Origin: Lama guanicoe
Taxonomy: Eukaryota
Length of the DNA: 64,000 nucleotides
NCBI GenBank assembly: GCA_013239625.1
Contig: MU053629.1
Span: 2,941,567-3,005,566 of the forward strand
Reading direction: 5' to 3'
Shown here: positions 2,929 through 50,052 of the stretch, in pieces
Position numbering within the stretch: the stretch's first letter is position 1
Layout of the letters: each line of letters starts with the position of its first letter
Program-made: the position numbers and the translations under genes
Notes under the pieces: model-generated
What the model saw: only the letters and a program-made list of their open reading frames with translations
Told to the model about the DNA's origin: nothing
Databases searched by the model: none

Positions 2929-3229
2929 TAGGCATATCTTGTTTCACTGCATTTCACAAATACTTCATTTTTTACAAATTGAAGATTTGTGGCAACTTTG
3001 TGTTGTCAGATGGTGGTTAGCATTTTTTAGCAGTAAACTATTTGTTAATCAAGGTAGGCACTTTTTTTAGACATGATGCTGCTGCACACTTAATAGACAC
3101 AGTATAGTATAAACGTAACTTTTTTATGTGCTGGGAAACTAAGAAATTCATGCGACTAGCTTTATTGCCATATTTGCTTTATTGTGGTGGTCTTGGAAGT
3201 GAACCTGCAGTATCTCCCAGGTATGCCTA
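2929..3229 (+). mobile_element. Tigger1-like internally deleted DNA transposon (TcMar)
   Basis: Degenerate TIRs (taggcatatc ... caggtatgcct) and the body acaaattgaagatttgtggcaac...gcacacttaatagac. Homologous to 22455-22839. Confidence 0.8.
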
Positions 3230-16228: not shown

Positions 16229-16771
16229 ACCCCTACCTCCTCGTAAAGTTAACTGAGTCAGTGAATACTGCATAAAATCCCACAGCAAGTCAGTAACGCT
16301 GCTTTAACTGACCCCAGGTTTCCCAGATAAGATGGGGAAAGAGGAAAACTGAGAAAAGATATAATATAAAATCAACATAATTATTCTAGCAAATGATTTA
16401 AAGAGCCATTTACAAGGTGATAGTAGGTGGGAAGGATATGGCAGGGAGGGGAGAAAGGTGACGAGGGACTTTCTATTCTTTCAGGGAAGTCTGCGAAAAC
16501 CCCTACCTCCTCGTAAAGAGTTAACTGAGTCGGTGAATACTGCATAAAATCCCACAGCAAGTCAGTAACGCTGCTTTAACTGACCCCAGGTTTCCCAGAT
16601 AAGATGGGGAAAGAGGAATACTGAGAAAAGATATAATATAAAATCAACATACTTATTCTAGCAAATGATTTAAAGAGCCGTTTACAAGGTGATAGTAGGT
16701 GGGAAGGATATGGCAGGGAGAGGAAAAAGGTGACGAGGGACTTTCTATTCTTTCAGGGAAGTCTGGGAAAA
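16229..16771. repeat. Two-copy ~270-bp tandem duplication in an INTS14 intron
   Basis: 16229-16498 and 16499-~16771 are nearly identical, with a few substitutions and a 2-nt indel. Confidence 0.95.
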
Positions 16772-19132: not shown

Positions 19133-21092
19133 CTGAAAAGAAAGAATTAAAAGAGAATTAATCTGTGCTATTGGAAAGTACATTACTTTCCATGTACTAG
19201 ATTTCATATACATAATGTTTAGGTGGAAAATTCAAATATGAGGTTATTAAAAGTTTCTCTGAATGACTCTAATACTTTACATTTTAAGTAACTTCGAAAA
19301 TAAGGATAACTGTCTTTTATTTAATGGATTTAAGTTATATGACAATTAGACTTTATTTTTATGAGGCTAGGTCCTCAGCCAAGGCAAAACTTAAAGGTCA
19401 AGCCCTTCTGCATAGTCAGGGATGTTCAGGTCACCAGAGGGCGTCACAGTCAAACACTCTCACAACAACTGCAAGCAGCTATCCTTGGAGGGTAAGGCTA
19501 TTGCATTAAACACATTTATTGCATTAAACACATTTCCCTAAGAAATACATTCTTTACAAAACTAAGGTAGCAGTCTATATACAACAATGGTTTCTTTGCT
19601 TTACAGAAGCTGTAATAAAGACCAAAAATATTTGTTGAAAATATAAAATAAGTTAAAAAAAAAAAAAAGTTGTAACCCAAAGTACTTCCTAAAAGTTTTT
19701 TTCTGATTATACAAGCAGTTTAAAAACTTTTAAACACTAAAAGCTATAAAGTAGAAAAATAAAGTCATTCATTATTCATCATCAAAGGAAACCTCTATTA
19801 ATATTTTATGGAACTGCTTTTTAGTCTTTCTTCTAGGCATATACTCATATTCTCAAAACAATTTTTTAAAAAATCATGATCATGGTGAGTACAAGGTACT
19901 TCTAATACATCAGAAAATCTTTTCTGGAGCTCTGCTGTCATAACCTTCCTTAGCTGAGTAACAAAGGAATCAGCATAAGCAGTTATATATTTTTCATTTG
20001 AGTAGGAAAAAAGCCTACATTTTAAAGAGGTTTAAATGTAAGGTATAACAAGGATCTTGGACTAAAAGTTTATATGGGAAAGAAAGGATCAAAGTTACTC
20101 ATCAAAAAAGGATGGGAGGGAAGTGGGATCTGATTGGTTTGAAGGCAACATTACATTTGGTACCACTTAATACACTGCTGTCAAGTCGCAGTGAAAAGGA
20201 TGGATGCCCTACTTCCAGAGAGCTAGGAGCTAAAGGCAGAGGAAATAAACAGCCTGCACACAGCCCTTCACTCAGAAAGTCCTTAAAATCTATACACCTA
20301 GGATGAAACAAATTTTAATTTTAAAAATTTAATTTTAATCATTTAACTTTAATTTTAATCATCTGTTGATTGAACAATTATCTAGTGAACACCTACTAAG
20401 CACCAGGCACTATGCTAGGCACACCAGTGCTAGGCACTGGTGACTGAAACTGATGGTTCAGCGTGTACCCACCACTCAAGGAGTCCACCCACCAACATGA
20501 GACAACTCTCCTCTCTACTACCCTTTGTTACTTTTAACTTCTGGCTTTGCCAGCTTACCTAAGCATAGCACCGGCAACATGAGCCAGGTAAAAGCCATAG
20601 TGCATTACTTTCTTTCAGTCTTAATACAAGAAGCAGGATTAGAAAGGACAGTGTATCAGAGCTGAGACCTGAGAGACTACCATTCACCTAGAGACTCCAC
20701 GCTGCTAGCCAATAAGAACCAGAGTGTCTTGTCCAGGGTCACAAAGGAAGACCCACACAGCCAAGTCCAGAAGCTAGCTAGCCCTTCATACATGATCTTA
20801 ATTATGATGCTATTCAGTCTTACTAACTCTATTAAGAACAACCTCAAGGACTGCAATGCCAGTACACCTGGCCTCGATTTCCAACTCTCATAATTTGTGG
20901 TTACAATGATCTAAGATTGGAATTTAACTCATGACCTCACTATGAAAGACCACTAATCTGCCACCCCTTTGGCAATGCACCCTCCCATGCAAAGTGTACT
21001 GACATTTCTTTTCAACCCTCCCGGACAGAGAAAAGTAAAAGTCAGGAGTTAGAAGAACTAAGAAGGAAGTTTAAAAAAAAAAAAAAAGTTAC

Positions 21093-22454: not shown

Positions 22455-22839
22455 TTTTTTCAAATTGAAGGTTTGTGGCAACCCTGCATATAGCAAGTCT
22501 ACTGGCATCATTTTTCAAACAGCATTTACCCAATTTGTCTCTGTGTCATATTTTAGAAATTCTTGCAATATTTCAAACCCTCCACCAGCAAAAAGATTAC
22601 AGTTTGTTCAAGGCTCAGATGATGGCTAGCATTTTTTAGCAATAAAATATTTTTTAATTAAGGTAAGTACATTGTTGTTTTAGACAATGCTATTGCACAC
22701 TTAATAGACTACATGAGAGTGTAAATGTAACTTTTATATGCATTGGGGAAGCAAGAAATTCATGTGACTCCTTTACTGCTATACTTAATTTATTGCGGTG
22801 CTCTGGAAGGGAACCTGCAATAGCTCTAAGGCATGCCTG
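22455..22839 (+). mobile_element. Tigger1-like fragment
   Basis: Same family as 2929-3229. Ends in TIR ...ggcatgcctg followed by TA. Confidence 0.8.
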
Positions 22840-38509: not shown

Positions 38510-38994
38510 TGTGAACAAAGAATGTCACCTACCGTATTAGCAAATAATGGATGTTGTGGCCATCATGCCATCAGCCACTACAGCTCCCCACTTCCCAATT
38601 TTGTACCCTGATGGGAATTCAGGATGGAGATAAACAGGTTACTGGCCCTAGGTACTTAAGGTGCGTATCAAAGGAATAATTTCATTAAACCCAGATACTT
38701 GTACCTTCCTATACGTAGAAAAGTGCCAAACTCATTAACTTGAGATGTCTTTTTTTTTTTTTAAACAAGCTGTAATCTTTTGATGCTGGATTACCCGGTG
38801 TTTTGTTTTGTTTTGTTTTGTTTTGTTTTTGTAAAAACTCCTATATATTTTGGCTCCTACCTTACCTCTTTGTAACAGCAGCCCCTTAGAACTATCTTAG
38901 AGCCTGTATCCCAGGCTTACATCCTCAGTAATACCCCCAATACAACTTAATTCTCAACTTTGAGGTTGTGCTTTTTAAAATTTTTCATTTGGCA
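38510..38994 (+). repeat. 5' LTR
   Basis: Aligns with 44616-45108 (shared tggagataaacagg.tactggcccta, aaactcattaacttgagatgtct). Followed by the PBS. Confidence 0.88.
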
Positions 38995-38998
38995 GTTT

Positions 38999-39016
38999 TG
39001 GCGACCATGAAGTGAC
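38999..39016 (+). promoter_or_regulatory. Retroviral primer-binding site, tRNA-Arg type
   Basis: tggcgaccatgaagtgac matches the recalled Arg PBS TGGCGACCACGAAGGGAC at 16/18 positions. Confidence 0.7.
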
Positions 39017-42000
39017 CCAGAGCAGACTTTTCTCCTTCACCTGAACTCTATGAGAAACCAGAGCCTTGGTACCAGCAGAGGCCTCTTGTGCCCATCCTCC
39101 TCCTTTGGAGAGTCCAGATGAATTTGGGTGAGTCTCCCCTGTTTTTGAAGCTCCCGATTACTGGTTGATGATCCTGAGTTGTATTTGGCCGTATGTAACA
39201 GGTATCTGGCTCCCTAGTTGAAAGACACTGGGGGAGCCCAGTTGAAAGACACTGAACGTTGTTCGGTTGAGAGACACCGAGCTGTCTGGCCTGGATGACT
39301 GGGTGAGAGGCTGGCCTAACATCTTTCCTAAATGAGGGGTGTCAGAAAGTTAGTTGGAGGCCTCCAACTAACACCCAAGCCAGATTTATGTATGTACAAA
39401 CTTGATTACAAGTACTTACTTACTGGGAATTAAAGGAAATTTCTCCTTGAAAATGGGCAGTATGGGGCTCGTTTATTGTGTACACAGTTAAGTTAGAGAA
39501 AGACAGCTTGATAAACATTTTTTCATAATTCTGACCTTAAAGAAACAGAAGCCCTTCTAAGGGAGAAGTTGGATTTCTCTCCCTGTGTCTTTGAGGTGAC
39601 AGTGTTCTGCCTGGTCTTCTTAGGTGTTTATGTGTGTGTGATTTGAGGGTTTGGTCTCTGTCATCCAGAAGGTACACACATGGGTATATTTGACAGCAAG
39701 TGAAATAGGCTGAGATTCTGAGCAGTTGTTTTTTATTTGTCTGTTTGTTTTTGTTTTTGTTTTTGATCTGGTTGTGCCAGCTCTCAGGGAAATTTGTCAT
39801 ACAGCGTTCCAGCCTAGAAGGGGCCTTTGTCGTCTTAACCTTCATTGCACCCACCTGTAAATGAAGGCTCTTTTTTTTTTTTTTCTCCCCCTTAGACTGT
39901 TTTTAGGAGTAAACTTTCTAGATCTAGTGAAGGCTACATCTTTTGCATTTTTTATGGGGACACCTCTTGTTTCTTACTGGTCTGAGTTGCTATTAAAATA
40001 CTACTCATCAGTGGTCAGACACTGGATCCTTTAAATTGGAAAAACTTCTGAACCGGTAAATTTTTAGAGAGCTATCATTAGAAACAGCTGTTTTATTGGT
40101 ACCTATGAAAAAAACAAATTAGATGGTGGGAAAAAATATATATGTAAAACTCTCTTAGTTTAAAAACAAACAAAAAACAAATTTGAGAAGCGTTATTTGT
40201 GGTCTCTGCTTCCCCTCAGTGGGTCTTACAGATGCTAATAAAAACATTAGGATAATTAATGTTAATTAGGTTTATTAACAGGGAAGTAAGAAAACACTGA
40301 AGAGATAGTCTAGAGACTTCTTCCTAACAAGGTGGAAGTTTAAAGGGACTTGTCCCAAAAGGATAAAGAAATCTTTAAATGGTTATTAAGAAATGGGATA
40401 AATAAAATGGACATTAATGGGATTAAAACAAAAGGTTTTGATACAACACAACTTAAGATTGGATGGGCCAAAGGGACCCCGTATTGGTCCCCAGCATTAA
40501 AGGGCACCAAACACATCTCCTAAAAAATAGTATTTATCTATTAAAAAATAAATAGATATTTAAAAGGCTGGAAGAAAATTACGCTGAGATACCTGACCGA
40601 CAATTACTTGGGACAACAGTGAGGCCAATTAATCAAATTGAAAGATTGACAAAAGGGCCTGAATCCCTTCACCTGGGGACCCCAGAGCCTTTTAAATAAC
40701 GATAGATAAAATGATGGAGGGATGAAAAGAAAGGAAAGCTTCTAGGACTCCCTGTAAGACCAAGGCCCGTCGATGGGATCCTAATGGAAACTAAAGTTAA
40801 AGGTATGAAAGTTGATAAAATTGAGATGAGTGCTTATAAAAACTGGTATGTTTAAATGGGCTTTATGTAAGATGGTTTCGTCTCTTTTGCCTAATTATAT
40901 TGTGGGATAGACATTATGTCTCCCCGGGGAATGCTTCCCCTGACTGGTATTATAAGACAGAGCATATTTCCCTGCTCCTGAGACAATTCATTAAACATAG
41001 TAGAGGAAACCAGTTGGGGTGACCTGAATCTGTACAATGTAAAGTAAAAAAGGGGAGCTAATAATCTGAGTTTAACCTGTACACTCGGAAAGAGGACGTT
41101 TTTGAATGCCTTGTGCAAACTTTTGAAACCATAAGTTGAACCCTAAAGTTCCAGAACATAGGTTCTTGATTTTCAGTTTAGTTGGAAATCTTCTCATTGA
41201 TATATAAAAAAAAAAACAAGTTAAAATATACTTGGGCAAATCAATCTTTTAATACCATTTAGGCAGCAGACCGGGTCTTTGGGGACTGAGAAGCAGCTGT
41301 CTTTGTCCTGCACATTTCTACAAATCAGAAATGCAAATACAGCCCACAAAGACCTGAGCTTGAGCCTAATTAGCTCAATCAGATAGAACCTGAAACCAAA
41401 GGAAGAAAAGGCCTTTTTAAACTCAAAACTGGAAAGGCTCCCTCACCCAAAATGTAATTCATAGCTTTCTTAAGAGTTTATCAAGGACAAATACAAGTCT
41501 TAAAAATCTATTCTACAAATGGCGAAGCCTTAGTCATCTCAGCAAGCCAATTTAACTTACTCTGTTATTTATAAACTACTGTGTTTATACTGTAATACTT
41601 GATTCATAATTAAATCTTAAAGCTGTGAAATCTCTAGTTTTGTCTGTTTATAGGGCTGTGTGTATATTATACATGCGAAATGTCTCTCCCTCTGGAAAAC
41701 ATTATCAAAATTAAATTTATAAAGGCTCTTTAATTGACTTAACAATAAGTACTTGCAAATTAAATATTTCTAAATATAAAAGAAGCTGGCAAGAATGAAT
41801 TTCAGGTCCACATGATCTAGGAAATATTCAATATTAAATTAATATCTGGTATTAAACTAGCTTTAGCTTGTTGGTTTGATCAATACAGACATGTCTTTAC
41901 TTTCATTGTATCTGGGTTTGCTAGAAGTCAGTAAGTTTCTGTTATTTCTGTTGCAGTTGTCAGCAAGAAAAAAGCACTTGGCATGATATTTTCACAAGTT

Positions 42001-43254
42001 ATAAAATAAAGGTAAATGAGGTAAGCATTTTCAGGTGAACTTTTTAGGAATAGTTTTGCCTTGGGTATATCTATCTAAAATAGTTTCTCCAGGTTTTTGG
42101 TAACTTGAAACTTTAGAGTTTTGCTAAATTCAGTTAAATAATGGGAATTCATTGAATATCCAGGTCATTTCAAATAAGACAAAATACTGGAACATTAGTT
42201 ACTAAACAGGTCTACGTTTACCTATTTATTCTTCCTTTGAGAGGAAAACTAAAGGTGTTTGGGGTTTATTAGACATATGCTTTGTACTACATTGAGAAAA
42301 GAAATTATGCTATGAGAAGATGTATGTTTCTAGAGGTATGGAATATTACTAAATTTGCCAAGCAGGAAATGCTGGTATGACAAACAGGTCACAATTACTT
42401 GCTGCTTGTCGGCTTTCCCTAGAGATTAACGGTTTTAAGGGTTAAAATTGTAATATGTAAATAAACCTACCTGAAATAATAAAGGAAACATTTCAGTAAG
42501 CAAGGAAGGTAAGATTTGTGTTTTCAGCAAAAGAAGGTATGGGGGACTGGAAATGTATTTTGTTAAGGGGAATGAATGATTTTGTCCTAAAGCTGGTTAT
42601 TTCAAATGGAAAAGAAAAATAAGAGATAAACTAATATAAATATAGAAAGTTTGGAAGGTTTGTGGAAGGGGAGCCCTTTGTACGAAAAGGCTGGGATTGG
42701 ATTAAATCTAATTAAGTACATGAATTTTGTTACTGAGTGTGGATAATGCAGGACTAGAGTTCCATTCTCTCTGTTCAGAGAACAAAGCTTTCTTGGAATG
42801 TTGAGTTACTTTTGATAACTGCGTTGTGAGTTTCTTTGCCTTCTAAACGGTCTGTGTTTGACTTAAAAATCTTTTATTGTCACTTTGGTTGAATAAATAA
42901 GTATTGTTTCACTAGTGACCTATGGTCCTCTTTGATCAAGTGTTTTAAAAATCTTTTGATATCTTTGACAAATTTCCCCTAGACAGATTCTAAATTAAGT
43001 TCCTTTGACCTCTAGCTAACTTTGGGATTCTTCAAAGGGCCTCTGAATGCCAAAGAGAGAAATACTAAACTAATTAGGCTTACTGGGTATGCTAAATTAC
43101 TTGAGAAGTATTGTCAAGTGATTGGAAATAAACCTTCTCAGGTTATATTGTATCTATAAATGTCATTAATATAGATATTCCAGAATTTATGTGGAATTCC
43201 TAAAAGTCTGACATGTCCTGGTATGTTACCATACATAATTCTAGTGATTATCTT

Positions 43255-43431
43255 TTTTTTTTTTTTTGAGTAAAAGATTTATTCAGAGAGATACATACTC
43301 CACAGACAGAGTGCAAGATGTCTCAGAAGGCAAGAGAAAGGCCATGAGGTGCCTGGTTGGGTGTTTAGTTTAAAGTAAAAGTAGATACACAGTTACACGC
43401 TCCATAGAGTGCAGGCCATCTTGGAAGGCAC
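43255..43431 (-). mobile_element. Polyadenylated retrocopy of an LTR 3' end (MER41-like), nested in the ERV
   Basis: 14-bp TSD ctagtgattatctt (43241-43254 and 43432-43445), poly(T) on +, and AATAAA 10 nt before the tail on the - strand. Confidence 0.8.
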
Positions 43432-43986
43432 CTAGTGATTATCTTAAAATGTTGTATGTCACAGAAACATCCGAATTTCTTGTCCCTTTCATTTTAATCA
43501 GATCCTTAACCATGCCAGTTTAAGTCTTTAGTCTTTTATAGACAGTCATTGTTTCATTGTGATGCTTTTATAAAATGACGATCTTTAAGAAGATTCATAT
43601 AAAGGACATTTTGACAAATAGAAGTTTCTGATAACTTTTAGAACCAGTTAAGAAATACGAAACTCTAATGGAAAACCTGATGATATCATCCAGATCAATA
43701 GGAATTAATTACTTGGGACTGAATGAACTGATAAATATGATTTATTTTATAACTTTCTTTCTGAAATAATCTGGCTTTTAATCTTTGTTTCCCAGAAAAC
43801 CTTTCCTTTTAAGCGAACTATGACCTATAGCAAGTTGATAAAGTATGCCTTTGTAAGTGAGGATGAAACATTTATCTTTTTCTCTCTGCCTGATCCCTCC
43901 AGCATTTGGCTTCTCTAGCTGACCCCCCTGTGGCCCTGAGGGCTTATTGTGACCTGATTACAACTAGTTATTCTGGTCATTGTTTT

Positions 43987-44140
43987 TTTGTTTGTTTTTA
44001 ATTTTTTTTGTTGTTGTTGTTTTTTGGGGAAGTAGTTAGATTTACGTATTTATTTTTAGAGGAGGTACTGGAGATTGAACCCAGGACCTTGTGTATGCTA
44101 AGCATGCGCTCTACCGCTTGAGCTATATCCTACCCCCCAA
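43987..44140 (-). mobile_element. tRNA-derived SINE (Vic-1-like) nested in the ERV
   Basis: Reverse tRNA-like head (gattgaacccaggacc...ctctaccgcttgagctata). TSD tcattgtttt at 43977-43986 and 44141-44150. Confidence 0.85.
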
Positions 44141-44615
44141 TCATTGTTTTAACTTGTTGCTTACGAATTATTTATGCATCATGCCTCTCTCTGCTGAACC
44201 ATGGCTTCATTAAGATTACCAGCTGTATTACTTATATCCTGTCTATTTTTTGAGATTGTTGTCTCTTCATTACCCAGTGTGTAACTAGGTCTCCATCAAA
44301 ATTAATTTTGGCTAAACATCTTGAGGCAGCCAATCAGATATATAACTCTACATGGAATCATTTTAATCGTTGAACTCTAGGTATGGAAAGAAGCAAAAAG
44401 GGAAAACATTTCCTGGATCATAATAGACTAGTAAGACAGGGGATCTGGGGAATTTTAGATTATCAACAAGGCCTGATCCAAAAATTAGCACATTGACTGG
44501 CTTATCAACAGAATCTTCGTCTGATCTAGGAACAAGCCTCCTTAGTGCCATTAGACAAAATTGGTCATGAAATGTCTCCCAAATGTTGGTTGAATTTATG
44601 ACTGAGAGGAGGTAC

Positions 44616-45108
44616 TATGGACTAAGTGTCACCTGCCATATCAGTAAATAAAGGACGTTGAGACCATCAAGCCATCAGCTGCTGTAGCTGCCCGGCCCCA
44701 GTGGTGTACCCAGGGAACTCTGGTTGGAGATAAACAGGCTACTGGCCCTAGATAGTTAAGGTGTATATCAAAGGAATAATCTCATTAAGCCCAGACATCT
44801 TCCCATATGTAGAAAAGTGCTAAACTCATTAACTTGAGATGTCTGTGTTTTAACTAGCAGTAATCTTTTGATGTTTGACTACCTGGGTTTGTTTTTGTTG
44901 TTTTTGTTGTTGCAAAAACTCATATTCTGGCTCCCCCTGTACTTCTTTTGGACAAAAACTCTTATATATCCTGGCTCCTCCCTTTCCTCTTTTGGAACAG
45001 TCCCTCAGAACTATCTCAGAGGCTACCCCAGGCTCAAGCCCTCAGTAATGCCCTAAATAAAACATAATTCTCAACTTACAGATTGTGCACTTTTTTTTTC
45101 AGTCGACA
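44616..45108 (+). repeat. 3' LTR
   Basis: Follows the purine tract, has AATAAA at 45056-45061, and ends ...gtcgaca before the TSD. Confidence 0.88.
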
Positions 45109-45230: not shown

Positions 45231-45411
45231 TATTTTATTTTATTAGTATTTAAAAAGCTTTTGTTGATTTTTTTTTGCCTTTTTGAATTTTTTTTTTGAG
45301 GGGGAGAAGGTAATTAGGTTTATTTAGTTATTTTGGTGGAGGTACTGGGGATTGAACCCAGGACCTTGTACATGCTAAGCATGTGCTCTGCCACTGAGCT
45401 ATACCCTTCCC
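45231..45411 (-). mobile_element. tRNA-derived SINE (Vic-1-like)
   Basis: ggaggtactggggattgaacccaggacc...ccactgagctataccc with a T-rich tail and imperfect tccctc TSD. Confidence 0.85.
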
Positions 45412-45899
45412 ACTCCCTCATTTTAAAAAATAGACTTTATGTCTTAGAGCAGTTTTAGGTTCACAGCAAAACTGAGCAGGTAACCCCTCATTTTTGACTT
45501 TGATTTTCACATCCACCCCACAAATAGGTAAGAGAGGTGTCATTATCTCCACATTCACATTTAGATTACATTTAGAGTGACACAGTAGCAGACAGATCCC
45601 AGTGCTAACTGAAGTTTTCTGATCTTTTAAGCCCCAGGCACTTTCTCTTGATTCCGACAGTGTGCCTTCAGAATCGTTCTAAATCTTTCCTCCCTAAGCA
45701 TGGGAACTACACCACCTCTCATTCTTAGAGCTTAGAAACAAGTCTGAGAAGTTCCCCCATTTTCTCCCTTGGATGCAGGGGCCCATGGTGAGCCCATCTG
45801 TGTCCCTGGTGAAGGGTCTACCCTCTCAGGCTCTGGCGGAGGCAGTGGGACCCAGAACTTGTACAATGCCCAGATAAGCTTCTTAGAGGCGAGCATTAG

Positions 45900-46088
45900 T
45901 GGGATTGGATATCCTTCCCCTGAGATGCCCTTCACACCTGACCCTGCCTTGAACTAGGATTCCATAGGGGAGCTGGGGGCAGGAGAATGGGGTGTTCCCT
46001 GCTGTCCTGCTTCAGACCCACTCTTTGAGACCCTGGATTCTGACAAGTTTCCAGAACTGAGAAGACACCCCGATGTCCAGGTTTGAAG
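45900..46088 (+). other. SLC24A1: Probable non-coding exon 1 of SLC24A1 (5' end uncertain)
   Basis: Unique sequence ending at donor GAAG|GTAAAT (46089), about 1.9 kb upstream of the exon 2 acceptor. CRX-type motifs nearby. Confidence 0.5.
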
Positions 46089-47021
46089 GTAAATGATGTG
46101 ATTAGGTAGGAGGGATCAGCTAGGGTGCCAGCTCAGCTCTGTTATATAACTCAGGCACACCATAAAGAGAAAGTCTCCCAAGTTTCCTTAGGAGATTCAG
46201 TGTTGAGTTTTTGGCAAGGGACAGGGTAGACAGGGAGATGACGAAGACAATTACAGGAATCGAGGACAACCAAGGAAGTTCACTTATTCCATACTTCTCC
46301 CTTTGCTTGCCCCTCTTTTGCTTTGTAAGACAATTGTATTTGGATTGCTCACTGGTGTGGTATGCTGGAAAGACTGGGGCATTAGACAGCTTACCTGCAC
46401 TGCCGCTCACTCGCTGTGTAATGTTGAGCAAGTCACATCTCCTCTCTGGACCTCAGTTTCTTTGTGTCTCTCAAATAAGGAGTTGCGCTAAACAGTGTCA
46501 GTAATTCCTTGCACCTTTAATGACCTAAGATTCTATGGGTTATTTATCTCATTTCTTATATATGACTTAGAAGCAAAACCAGTCATTTCAGTTATTGTTT
46601 TGTAATCATCTGTGGACATTTATTAGAGATTTAATATTTACTTGGGCTGGGTTTCTGTCCCCTCTATTATAAATGGAGCTTTCTTTGAGAGCCTTAAATG
46701 TTCTTCCCTCCTGCGTCCTTATGTAAAATTAACCCCTAATGGGGCATTGATTCTGTACAACGCTTTTCACAGACCTTATATGTTTGCACTCTCCCAACGT
46801 TGCTGTGACATAGGTATTGTTATTACTGTTGTTATCTCTATAAAATTCAAGTTTAAAATATTACAATATGCATGTGATGAAAAGTTTAAATGGTTAAACT
46901 GAACAATAGCGTATACTGAAAACTGAAGGCCCCCTCTGATCCCCGACCTTAGTTTCCCTTTTCTAGATGTCCTTTGAGAGATAATCTTTGCCTAATCAAC
47001 GCATATGTTGTCATGCTCACT

Positions 47022-47490
47022 TCACGGATAAGGCACTGAGGTTCAGCCTTTCCAGGGTGACACAGCTAGTAAGCCTCAAAGCTGGGAACCCAGTCTTTGA
47101 GAACTTGTTTGGGGGTTATAGCAGGGGAGTGCAGCTGCTCGTGTACCCTTGACCAAGAACGGTCCTCCTCTATCGGGGAAGGCTGTGCTCTTTGACCGAG
47201 TGCGCAGCTTCGGGAGGGATGTGCATGGAGTGGTGAGGGAGGAAGGGGACACCCGCCTGGCCAGCCAGATCAGCCGAATCAACTGTGATGATCAACGGGG
47301 TGTCAGCTGTTGCAGCCAGATTGTCCTCACATCCGGGAACCCAGTCTTTGACTCTGGGTTTGTTTTTGTTGTTGTTGCAAAAACTCATATTCTGGCTCCT
47401 CCTGTATCTCTTTTGGACAAAAACTCTTATATATCCTGACTCCTCCCTTCCACAACACCACACTGTTCCTTCCACAACACCACACTGTCT
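47022..47490. mobile_element. MIR SINE interrupted by later insertions
   Basis: MIR core ataaggcactgagg...ggtgacacagctagtaag...gaacccag on the left and cttccacaacaccacactg on the right. Confidence 0.65.
47097..47334 (-). pseudogene. RN7SKP: 7SK snRNA retropseudogene, 3'-truncated and tailless
   Basis: Reverse complement begins GGATGTGAGG..ATCTGGCTGC and includes GTTGATTCGGCTGATCTGGCTGGC.AGGCGGGTGTCCCCTTCCTCCCTCACC and CCCCGATAGAGGAGGACCG, matching recalled 7SK nt 1 to ~240. Direct repeat gggaacccagtctttga at 47084-47100 and 47335-47351. Confidence 0.95.
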
Positions 47491-48153
47491 GGGAAACTTC
47501 TTTACATTAAGCTTTGTCCTTTCTGGATGTTGGTGGAACCATTTAAGTCAGTCCAGTAAAAACACGTAGAGACTTGATGTCTCTGGAACTGCCTTCTACT
47601 GCTGCCTCTTTTTGTCTAAGGTTTAAAATCATGTCTTGTTACTTCCCTTCTGCCTTTGATAAGATGAGCTTTGTGATCTGGAGCACCAGCTACAGATGAC
47701 TAAGCTTCTAGCAACTCGGGCTTGACCTGAGGAGTGTGGGCAGAGAGATCTCTTGCAGGGAGCCCAGAGTGGGCTGGGTGGACCCAGCTCATGAACCGGG
47801 GCTGCTGGCATGCCTACATGGCAGAGAGGACCCCGAGATGCCCTTTTCCCATGAGTAGGCATTGCCCCCTGGAGTAGAGGGCAGGGGTTGTTTTGCTCCA
47901 GCAGGAACAACTGCCTTCCACCACAAAGGTCTCTGTGTGGATTGTCGCTCTTCCAGATGAGGGTTTGGTGGATCCCAGCTCTCCTTTTAGAGGCAAGTAA
48001 CCTCTTCTTTTTTTTTTAATTTCTAGGTTTGTGGATACCCCCTGGCCTGGTTTCATGGAGAAATCTCTGATTACTAATCTGAATCCCAGAGCAGCCCCCA
48101 TCTTTCAGTGGACAGAACGAGAGGCCTTCTGTAACCAGACGTAACTGGCCATC

Positions 48154-50052
48154 ATGGGGAAATTGATAAGGATGGGGGTGCAGGAGAGGCGGCTGCTCTG
48201 GCCGAAGCGGCTTCACTGGAGTCGCCTCCTCTTCTTATTAGGAACGTTGATCATCGTTTCCACCTACCAGCACTTCAGGAGCCCCCGGGGCCTCCCCTCA
48301 CTGTGGGCAGCAGTCTCTTCCAAACACCCTATAAAACTAGCCAGCCGGGACCTCCCCAGCAATGAGATGATGATGGTGAGCAGTGACCCTCCAAAATCTA
48401 GCTTTGAAATAGAGGGTGAGACACAGACACCCCAAGCCACAGTGGGCAGAGATGGAACTACACCTGGCATGACAATGGAGCACACCCCCAGGACACCCAG
48501 AAGGACAACCAGCATCACTCCAACAATACCCAGGAACAACTACAGCCCAGCAACAACAAACGCAGGAGTGAAGGAAAACACCCCAGCCACGCCCGGTAGA
48601 GTACTGAGTCACTACAGCCCAACTGCAAGCAGACCAGTAGTAAAGAGTCACAGCCCAGCGACACCCAGGGGAGAAGTGAAGCGCTACCGCCCAACTCGAG
48701 CGAGGAGAAAGGTGAAGAAACACACCCCATCCCCACCCGGTAGAGTGGTCAGCAGTTATGCCCCACCCACACTCGTGACAATGACAAGGAGCCATGGGAC
48801 CACCCCCAGAACAACAGTGAAAGACAAAGAAATTATGGCAACCCATAAAATACTGGAGACCAACCCCTCCAAGAGAACAGTGGAGGAAACCACCCCAACT
48901 CCTCTTAAGGGAATAACTGATAACACTCCAACTTTCCTGATAAATGACATCGAAACAGACACCTTGACTTCTCCAAGGAGTGTGGTGGAGAAGAACACCC
49001 AAACTACTTCCAGAAGAGTGGATGACAATAACCCAACAAGCCACCAGGGATCAGTGGGAAAGAACAACCTGACATCTCCCCAGGGAGGGGTCCTGGAGCA
49101 CACCGCAGCCCTCTCTGAGGGGCAAGTGACAATAAGCTCCATGACAGGCAGCAGCCCAGCCAAAACCAAAGCCTCTACTGCTGCCTGGAAGGTTAGGAAT
49201 CCCTCGTCCAGAACCAGCACACCAACCATGGGAGTATCCTCAGCCACCTTCTGGGGGCTGGTGAAAGATCCTTCCACAGCACCCAGCACCCCAGCAACTC
49301 CTAGGATCAGGGCATCTCCGACCACTCAGGTCCGTCACTGTGTGGTTGTGGGGCCAGCCCCAGCTGCGCCTACTGCCCCCTCCCCCCGTCTGACAATGGC
49401 TGTGATTCCAGAGGTGGATCCCAACCCCAGTCCCTCAGTGCTGCCTCCTAGCCAGCCAGACCTCCACCCCAAGGCAGAGTACCCCCAAGACCTGTTCAGC
49501 GTGGAGGAGCGGAGGCAGGGCTGGGTGGTCCTGCACATCTTTGGTATGATGTATGTGTTTATAGCCTTGGCCATCGTGTGTGATGAGTACTTTGTTCCAG
49601 CCCTGGGCGTCATCACGGACAAGCTGCAGATCTCTGAGGATGTGGCAGGTGCCACATTCATGGCTGCTGGAGGCTCTGCCCCTGAGCTCTTCACCTCCCT
49701 CATTGGCGTCTTCATCTCTCATAGCAACGTGGGCATCGGCACCATAGTAGGCTCTGCTGTGTTCAACATCCTCTTTGTTATTGGCACTTGTGCCCTCTTC
49801 TCACGGGAGATCCTCAATCTTACCTGGTGGCCCTTGTTCCGTGACATCTCCTTCTACATCTGTGACCTAATGATGCTCATCCTCTTCTTCCTGGATAGCC
49901 TCATTGCCTGGTGGGAGAGCCTGCTGCTGCTGCTGGCCTATGCCCTCTATGTGCTCACCATGAAGTGGAACAAACAGCTTGAGCTCTGGGTGAAGGAGCA
50001 ACTCAACAAGAGGCCAGTGGCCAAGGTCATGGCCCTAGGGGACCTCAGCAAG
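48154..50052 (+). CDS. SLC24A1: Retinal rod Na+/Ca2+-K+ exchanger NCKX1, coding part of exon 2 (exon 48027-50052), 633 codons
   Basis: MGKLIRMG N-terminus, hydrophobic signal segment, Ser/Thr/Pro-rich ectodomain, then the first TM cluster with the alpha-1 repeat [15 protein letters not shown]. Acceptor ttctag at 48021-48026, donor AAG|GTAAGA at 50053. Confidence 0.97.

Follow-up and report, generated by a model that had tools for sequence, protein, structure and literature searches.

Repair-mediated duplications have been catalogued in mammalian genomes by Pace, Sen, Batzer and Feschotte (2009), whose class comprises inserts of at least 50 bp lying inside an old repeat (PMC2671141). They report 824 human cases with a donor within 5 kb, and 202 in cow. 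Donors lay at under 3 kb in 753 of 1,136 cases, the median for proximal cases was 147 bp, junctions carried 2–9 nt of microhomology with deletion or filler, and poly(A) was absent from all 39 proximal cases inspected (PMC2671141). Among human polymorphisms, Sudmant et al. (2015) describe 871 complex sites (53%) with a template within 10 kb, and 191 with at least two duplications (PMC4617611). Insertions made by polymerase theta are reported to measure 1–20 bp, with templates peaking within 20 bp and a search limited to 500 bp (PMC11541566). A separate body of work concerns tailless 7SK copies, of which Noll et al. (2015) list 139 in human (PMC5322556); Kojima (2010) likewise reports them (PMC2912911). 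A search for literature joining tailless copies with repair duplications returned nothing relevant, which is no proof of absence.

Here, a window of 64,000 nucleotides from Lama guanicoe was analysed (contig MU053629.1, forward strand; all coordinates are those of the window). It contains a tailless 7SK retrocopy and, just beyond the TSD at its 5' end, a 96-nt copy of part of an LTR located 2.4 kb upstream, followed by a 22-bp tandem duplication. This LTR-derived patch is, with considerable confidence, a repair-mediated duplication that formed long after the neighbouring provirus and the 7SK copy were inserted.

The donor lies in the 3' LTR (44616..45108, forward strand) of an old provirus-like element, delimited by alignment with the 5' LTR (38510..38994, forward strand, ends uncertain by ~3 nt) and by inspection of the ends. 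The two LTRs differ at 84 of 463 aligned letters (379 matches) and both have TG...CA-type ends, with an identical 4 nt flanking the two outer ends. The 3' LTR contains a 44-bp duplication at 44913-44996 where the 5' LTR holds a single 44-bp unit, in agreement with an earlier note on this DNA that had confined the duplication to the 3' LTR. The donor segment itself (44883..44984, forward strand, 102 nt) takes in most of this duplication. Five of the ten stop-to-stop frames of the LTR interior were scanned against Pfam; no match above the cut-off was obtained and gag, pol and env were not found in them, so the label 'provirus' rests on the LTR pair and its ends. The longest stop-free frame of this 5.6-kb interior (38995-44615) spans 121 codons, and the interior opens with a stretch that we take to be primer-site-like. 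Other repeats were noted in the window. Three tRNA-like SINE copies (45311-45414, 44049-44135 and 36-138) are mutually related, being 85-88% alike; one of them sits between the LTRs and one just past the 3' LTR. A head-to-tail duplication of 272 bp, 96-97% identical, occupies 16229-16771, a related dispersed repeat pair (3006-3157 and 22615-22769) is 75-84% alike over three blocks, and a perfect 18-bp tandem duplication lies at 19499-19535.

The site that received the patch is an old SINE, presumably a MIR, whose left part (47020..47083, forward strand) was recognised by a profile drawn from six further SINE-like stretches elsewhere in the window, without the locus itself (E 1.4e-4 for 47020-47096). 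This SINE was already split by the 7SK copy, which occupies 47097..47334 on the reverse strand and matches RF00100 with 197.7 bits (E 7e-54) from model position 1 to ~239. Position 1, at 47334, abuts the TSD, and similarity stops near model position 239, as read off the alignment. The TSD copies at the truncated 3' end (47084..47100, forward strand) and at the 5' end (47335..47351, forward strand) are identical at 17 of 17 positions, and the last 4 nt of the former also match 7SK. The copy is thus 5'-complete and 3'-truncated, has a TSD and lacks an oligo(A) tail, as is expected of a tailless retropseudogene. When the target was compared with TT/WAAAAWW, RNA and target were found to share 4 nt, and with only three A in the run the fit to the motif is loose. 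The rule of Pace et al. (PMC2671141) speaks of an interrupted repeat with collinear halves; at this locus the left half gives E 1.4e-4 and the right side is mixed (8/2000; 122/200). The first of these values is the number of random stretches that equalled the likeness of the 22-mer to the SINE 3' end, totalled over four copies chosen by eye, of which two were signal-free; the second, a negative outcome, is the number of random tails that scored as well as the right flank when the profile was asked for a SINE running on beyond the insert. The 22-bp duplication may be the 3' end of the host SINE, to which its likeness is mixed.

Aligned with 44874-44984, 47347-47449 has 99 matching letters and 4 mismatches, plus one gap run of 2 nt and one of 6 nt, with a blastn E of 7.6e-37 within the window; the runner-up was the 5' LTR, at 78% over 60 columns. 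The near-exact, same-strand copying from the 3' LTR proposed earlier is thereby confirmed. The earlier note had the copy extend over 47347-47449 with a 2-nt deletion; the copy itself holds, and the deletion is better read as a junction offset. Letters 47350-47354 look like host SINE sequence: against a further SINE copy in the window, 10 of 2000 random 5-mers did as well. The home strand would then probably extend to 47354, and the first templated letter would be 47354, corresponding to 44883. Read in this way, 47354..47449 (forward strand, 96 nt) copies 44883-44984 with the donor strand kept, 4 substitutions and a tract 6 nt shorter, at 2,370 bp from donor end to patch start. Among the LTR copies compared, patch and donor alone carry the 44-bp duplication and a first unit shorter by 4 nt.

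Both junctions share letters with the donor, 7 nt on the left and 4 nt on the right, as had been stated. The left junction (47347..47354, forward strand) consists of a 7-nt microhomology, the 2-nt offset and then one shared nucleotide; the donor half of the microhomology is the exact 7-nt run 44874..44880 (forward strand), matching 47347-47353. With four registers allowed, p for a 7-nt match is ~3e-4; a second microhomology register, tested upstream, gave 0 nt. Five of the seven letters fall inside the 17-nt TSD. The patch starts beyond the TSD, with the junction 3 nt away, and the join between the TSD and the 7SK 5' end is clean. On the right, the tandem duplication (47446..47488, forward strand) is exact over 21 nt with a period of 22 and begins exactly at the 4-nt microhomology, which forms its first 4 nt. 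Sequence inspection and alignment found no poly(A), no LTR ends and no TSD around the patch, the first two of these also having been remarked on before; the T-rich tract at its left end is donor sequence and no poly(A/T) tail.

Contigs from other sequencing runs were used to examine the locus in other genomes. Twenty of 24 runs (four organism labels, 8 studies) held 0.81-0.98 of the words of 45450-48020; the remaining rows, X21-X24, had a share of 0.00 and were left out. Four runs (X2, X4, X5 and X18) were aligned to the locus, the possible source being left out. X2, X4 and X5, which represent three labels and three studies, each yielded one contig running from 47369 to 47857, 48020 and 48017, respectively, with 0 differences. 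These contigs span the right junction and extend 80 nt into the insert, where they carry the letters of the copy and not those of the donor. They cover 47369-47449 of the patch and bridge the 22-bp duplication (three of the four runs in each case), so that patch and duplication occur together in 3/3 informative runs. The right junction and the 22-bp duplication, another element of the original description, are therefore real. No piece of this locus covered the left junction in any of the four runs, and cover of 47305-47328 was likewise absent from all four. The patch contigs start at 47369 and the 73-nt donor contigs end at 47398, the site of the only exact 31-mer shared by donor and copy; the unaligned letters of the X2 and X4 donor contigs are 44861-44882. 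Donor contigs were found in 4/4 runs. In X18, 47473-48020 was uncovered and the donor contig was unbroken, with 6 other letters. Two readings would give this pattern, an allele lacking the patch and a variant within the common 31-mer combined with filtering, and it was counted neither way. An empty site was observed in none of the species, and the 24 runs include no outgroup.

The LTR family has 15-18 records per run, most of them from other loci. Among the longest 32 of 65 pieces, other family members matched over 32-39 nt, had the single-unit form and carried extra letters at 47385-47387. No LTR copy other than the locus and the donor matched over more than 39 nt among these 32 pieces, in contigs that break in repeats, and at 47407 they included a single further record, with 6 differences in 39 nt. 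The run contigs support, without proving, a unique donor, the comparison covering the longest 32 of the 65 pieces. Long contigs from other loci in X4 (3,635 nt) and X5 (2,354 nt) matched 47340-47377 with 7 differences in 38 nt, which is probably low-complexity or family likeness. A 24-nt donor pattern matched nothing in metagenome_contigs or viral_contigs.

The relative ages of the layers were estimated from divergence. Over five existing LTR units, the substitutions at 47400 and 47408 are private to the donor and those at 47407 and 47439 private to the copy. This even split points to ageing of both copies, since errors of copying should be confined to the copy; all four would lie on the copy side by chance with p 0.06. 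Divergence per lineage is 2.1% for the patch (4/192, 95% interval 0.6-5.3%), 9.1% for the LTR pair and 6.3% for the 44-bp duplication. Counted by hand, the 7SK copy departs from the Rfam consensus, which is not this species' gene, at 31 of 239 columns, ~10 of them CpG-type; without the CpG-type sites, 19-21 differences remain in ~195-200 sites. Its divergence per lineage is put at 8-13%. The rate ratio of 7SK copy to patch is 4.1-6.2, with a one-sided p of 0.005 to 3e-5, of which the weakest value also counts the identical TSD pair, and LTR pair and patch differ in divergence with p 3e-4. Identity of the TSD at 17/17 positions has p 0.03-0.06 at the divergence of the 7SK copy, which counts against the age gap. 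Judged by these letter differences, the patch looks much younger than the adjoining 7SK copy, 4-6-fold by per-lineage divergence. At the rate of 2.2e-9 quoted by Pace et al. (PMC2671141), which may not suit this lineage, rough ages are 41 My for the provirus, 38-49 My for the 7SK copy, 28 My for the LTR duplication and 9.5 My (2.6-24) for the patch.

The following series of events could have produced this arrangement. A break or stalled fork would have exposed a 3' end within the old SINE, immediately beyond the 7SK TSD. This free end may have annealed to the 3' LTR 2.4 kb upstream through 5-8 nt of imperfect microhomology and been extended by 96 nt on the LTR template. It would then have returned to the home site at the 4-nt microhomology, and ~18 further bases of the right flank would have been copied before it rejoined one unit back, creating the 22-bp duplication in the same event; a few host bases were probably lost. 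A length of 96 nt and a reach of 2.4 kb suit SDSA/MMBIR-type switching better than polymerase theta; SDSA and MMBIR/FoSTeS are not told apart by one scar. Of the mechanism put forward in the earlier note, the local donor and the microhomology-primed capture are retained. Polymerase theta is not supported as the source of a 96-nt insert, since its templates peaked within 20 bp of the break in a search limited to 500 bp (PMC11541566).

The closeness of the patch to the retrocopy suggests other histories. The earlier note had considered repair coupled to retrotransposition, in which the LTR patch would have been templated as an L1-made break end was joined during 7SK retroposition. Indeed, 3 nt separate the junction from the TSD copy at the retrocopy 5' end, the identical TSD pair would suit a young age, and three L1-driven insertions with extra nearby-templated sequence are reported from experiments (PMC11702581). 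An equal age, however, predicts 15-23 mismatches between donor and copy, and 4 were seen. A retrocopy made from an already diverged pseudogene is unlikely, because the 7SK promoter is external. Under the TPRT model a coupled patch is expected between the retrocopy 5' end and the TSD; the patch here lies outside the TSD, whereas the 7SK 5' end joins it cleanly. With neither the same age nor that position found, and a 4-6-fold age gap, the coupling is not supported and such a single event is regarded as very improbable. A related reading, in keeping with the recurrently broken site suggested in the earlier note, has two events with a shared cause: an L1-type nick site was kept at the TSD end, cut again later and repaired by a local copy. 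It is a variant of the repair-duplication explanation. The letters 47345-47351 fit the loose motif YTTT/RA, with 6.8% of window positions lying at most 6 nt from such a motif, and the duplication rate tracks L1 activity in Pace et al. (PMC2671141). The site does not fit the strict motif TTTT/RA, the case is a single one picked after the fact, and a T-rich site in itself offers microhomology, all of which makes re-cutting doubtful.

The fragment might also be the remnant of an independent LTR insertion or a copy of a distant family member, and a family with so many members, most at other loci, would provide sources for it. The patch nevertheless lacks LTR ends and a TSD and shares the donor's private duplication, and the sole other record at 47407 has 6 differences in 39 nt (among the longest 32 of 65 pieces); this origin is regarded as very improbable. 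More weight, at a level still best called unlikely, is given to the LTR patch and the 22-bp duplication being separate events, the latter by ordinary slippage. The 21/21 identical pair has p 0.41 at the age of the patch, so that the same age or a younger one is possible, and the window has other short perfect tandem pairs, such as that at 19499-19535. Against this, the duplication begins exactly at the right microhomology and accompanies the patch in every informative run. An assembly artefact would be compatible with the lack of independent cover at the left junction and with the gap at 47473-48020 in X18. It is hardly credible in view of the contigs of X2, X4 and X5, which cross the right junction without differences, with 80 nt on the insert side in the copy's own letters. 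A repair-mediated duplication, younger than the retrocopy that it adjoins, remains the preferred explanation.

A neighbouring coding sequence is a long exon at 48154..50052 (forward strand; 633 open codons) with a Na/Ca exchanger domain (Pfam Na_Ca_ex, E 5.1e-31), which we take to be SLC24A1/NCKX1-like. It has a long low-complexity N-terminal part, the Na_Ca_ex domain at residues 462-603 and an acceptor-like tract that ends at 48026. A metagenome scan with its first 100 codons gave 206 pattern matches, 0 of them confirmed. The exchanger ATG is 705 bp from the insert, and the patch includes a TATA-like hexamer of the LTR at 47428. No AG occurs in 47354-47488, so that no splice acceptor is gained through the patch, which is most likely neutral; nothing points to its use. 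A weak further possibility is that it brought the TATA-like box of the LTR to 705 bp before the exchanger ATG.

The locus exemplifies a known mutational process in clean form and might serve as a lineage marker; its four layers are, in order, the SINE, the provirus and 7SK copy, the LTR duplication and the patch. It also illustrates that adjacency to a retrocopy need not mean a common origin. To have called it the most unusual structure in the window was an overstatement, as the class has hundreds of cases per mammalian genome (PMC2671141). One broader idea, held here as improbable, is that the old TSD end kept an L1-type nick site and was re-cut tens of millions of years later, which would make retrocopy edges lasting hot spots of repair duplication. 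If this were true, the locus would be a datable example, in which the provirus and the 7SK copy came first and the patch followed about four times later. A genome-wide accumulation of such patches at TSD ends, if real, would link the L1 endonuclease directly to repair duplications, a link for which Pace et al. had no more than correlated rates (PMC2671141).

The 7SK neighbour, though not the patch, resembles the tailless copies of Noll et al. in being 5'-complete and 3'-truncated, with a TSD, no tail and short complementarity at the cut; unlike their consensus, its target fits TT/WAAAAWW loosely (PMC5322556). As in L1-coupled templated insertions, nearby genomic DNA lies next to a retrocopy, but in those the patch formed together with the insertion and here it is 4-6 times younger by divergence (PMC11702581). 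Polymerase theta insertions share the priming and resolving microhomologies, and the 22-bp duplication would fit a cross-junction template; the LTR patch differs from these short inserts in its length of 96 nt and its origin at 2.4 kb (PMC11541566). The arrangement is also like the 'Ins with Dup and Del' and 'Ins with MultiDup and Del' sites of Sudmant et al., in which the insert consists of one or more local duplications with microhomology, although those are human polymorphisms with kb-scale deletions and the presumed deletion here is of a few bases (PMC4617611). Unlike the cases of Pace et al., the present host repeat had been divided beforehand by a tailless 7SK copy, the filled site alone was compared, and the tandem duplication flanks the patch on one side and is not a TSD around it (PMC2671141). 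In several further respects the patch agrees with that class: it measures 96 nt (at least 50 bp), has microhomologies of 7 and 4 nt, lacks a poly(A/T) tail, would have involved a small deletion, and was copied, probably into an old repeat, from a donor 2,370 bp away, inside the limits of >50 bp and <5 kb (PMC2671141).
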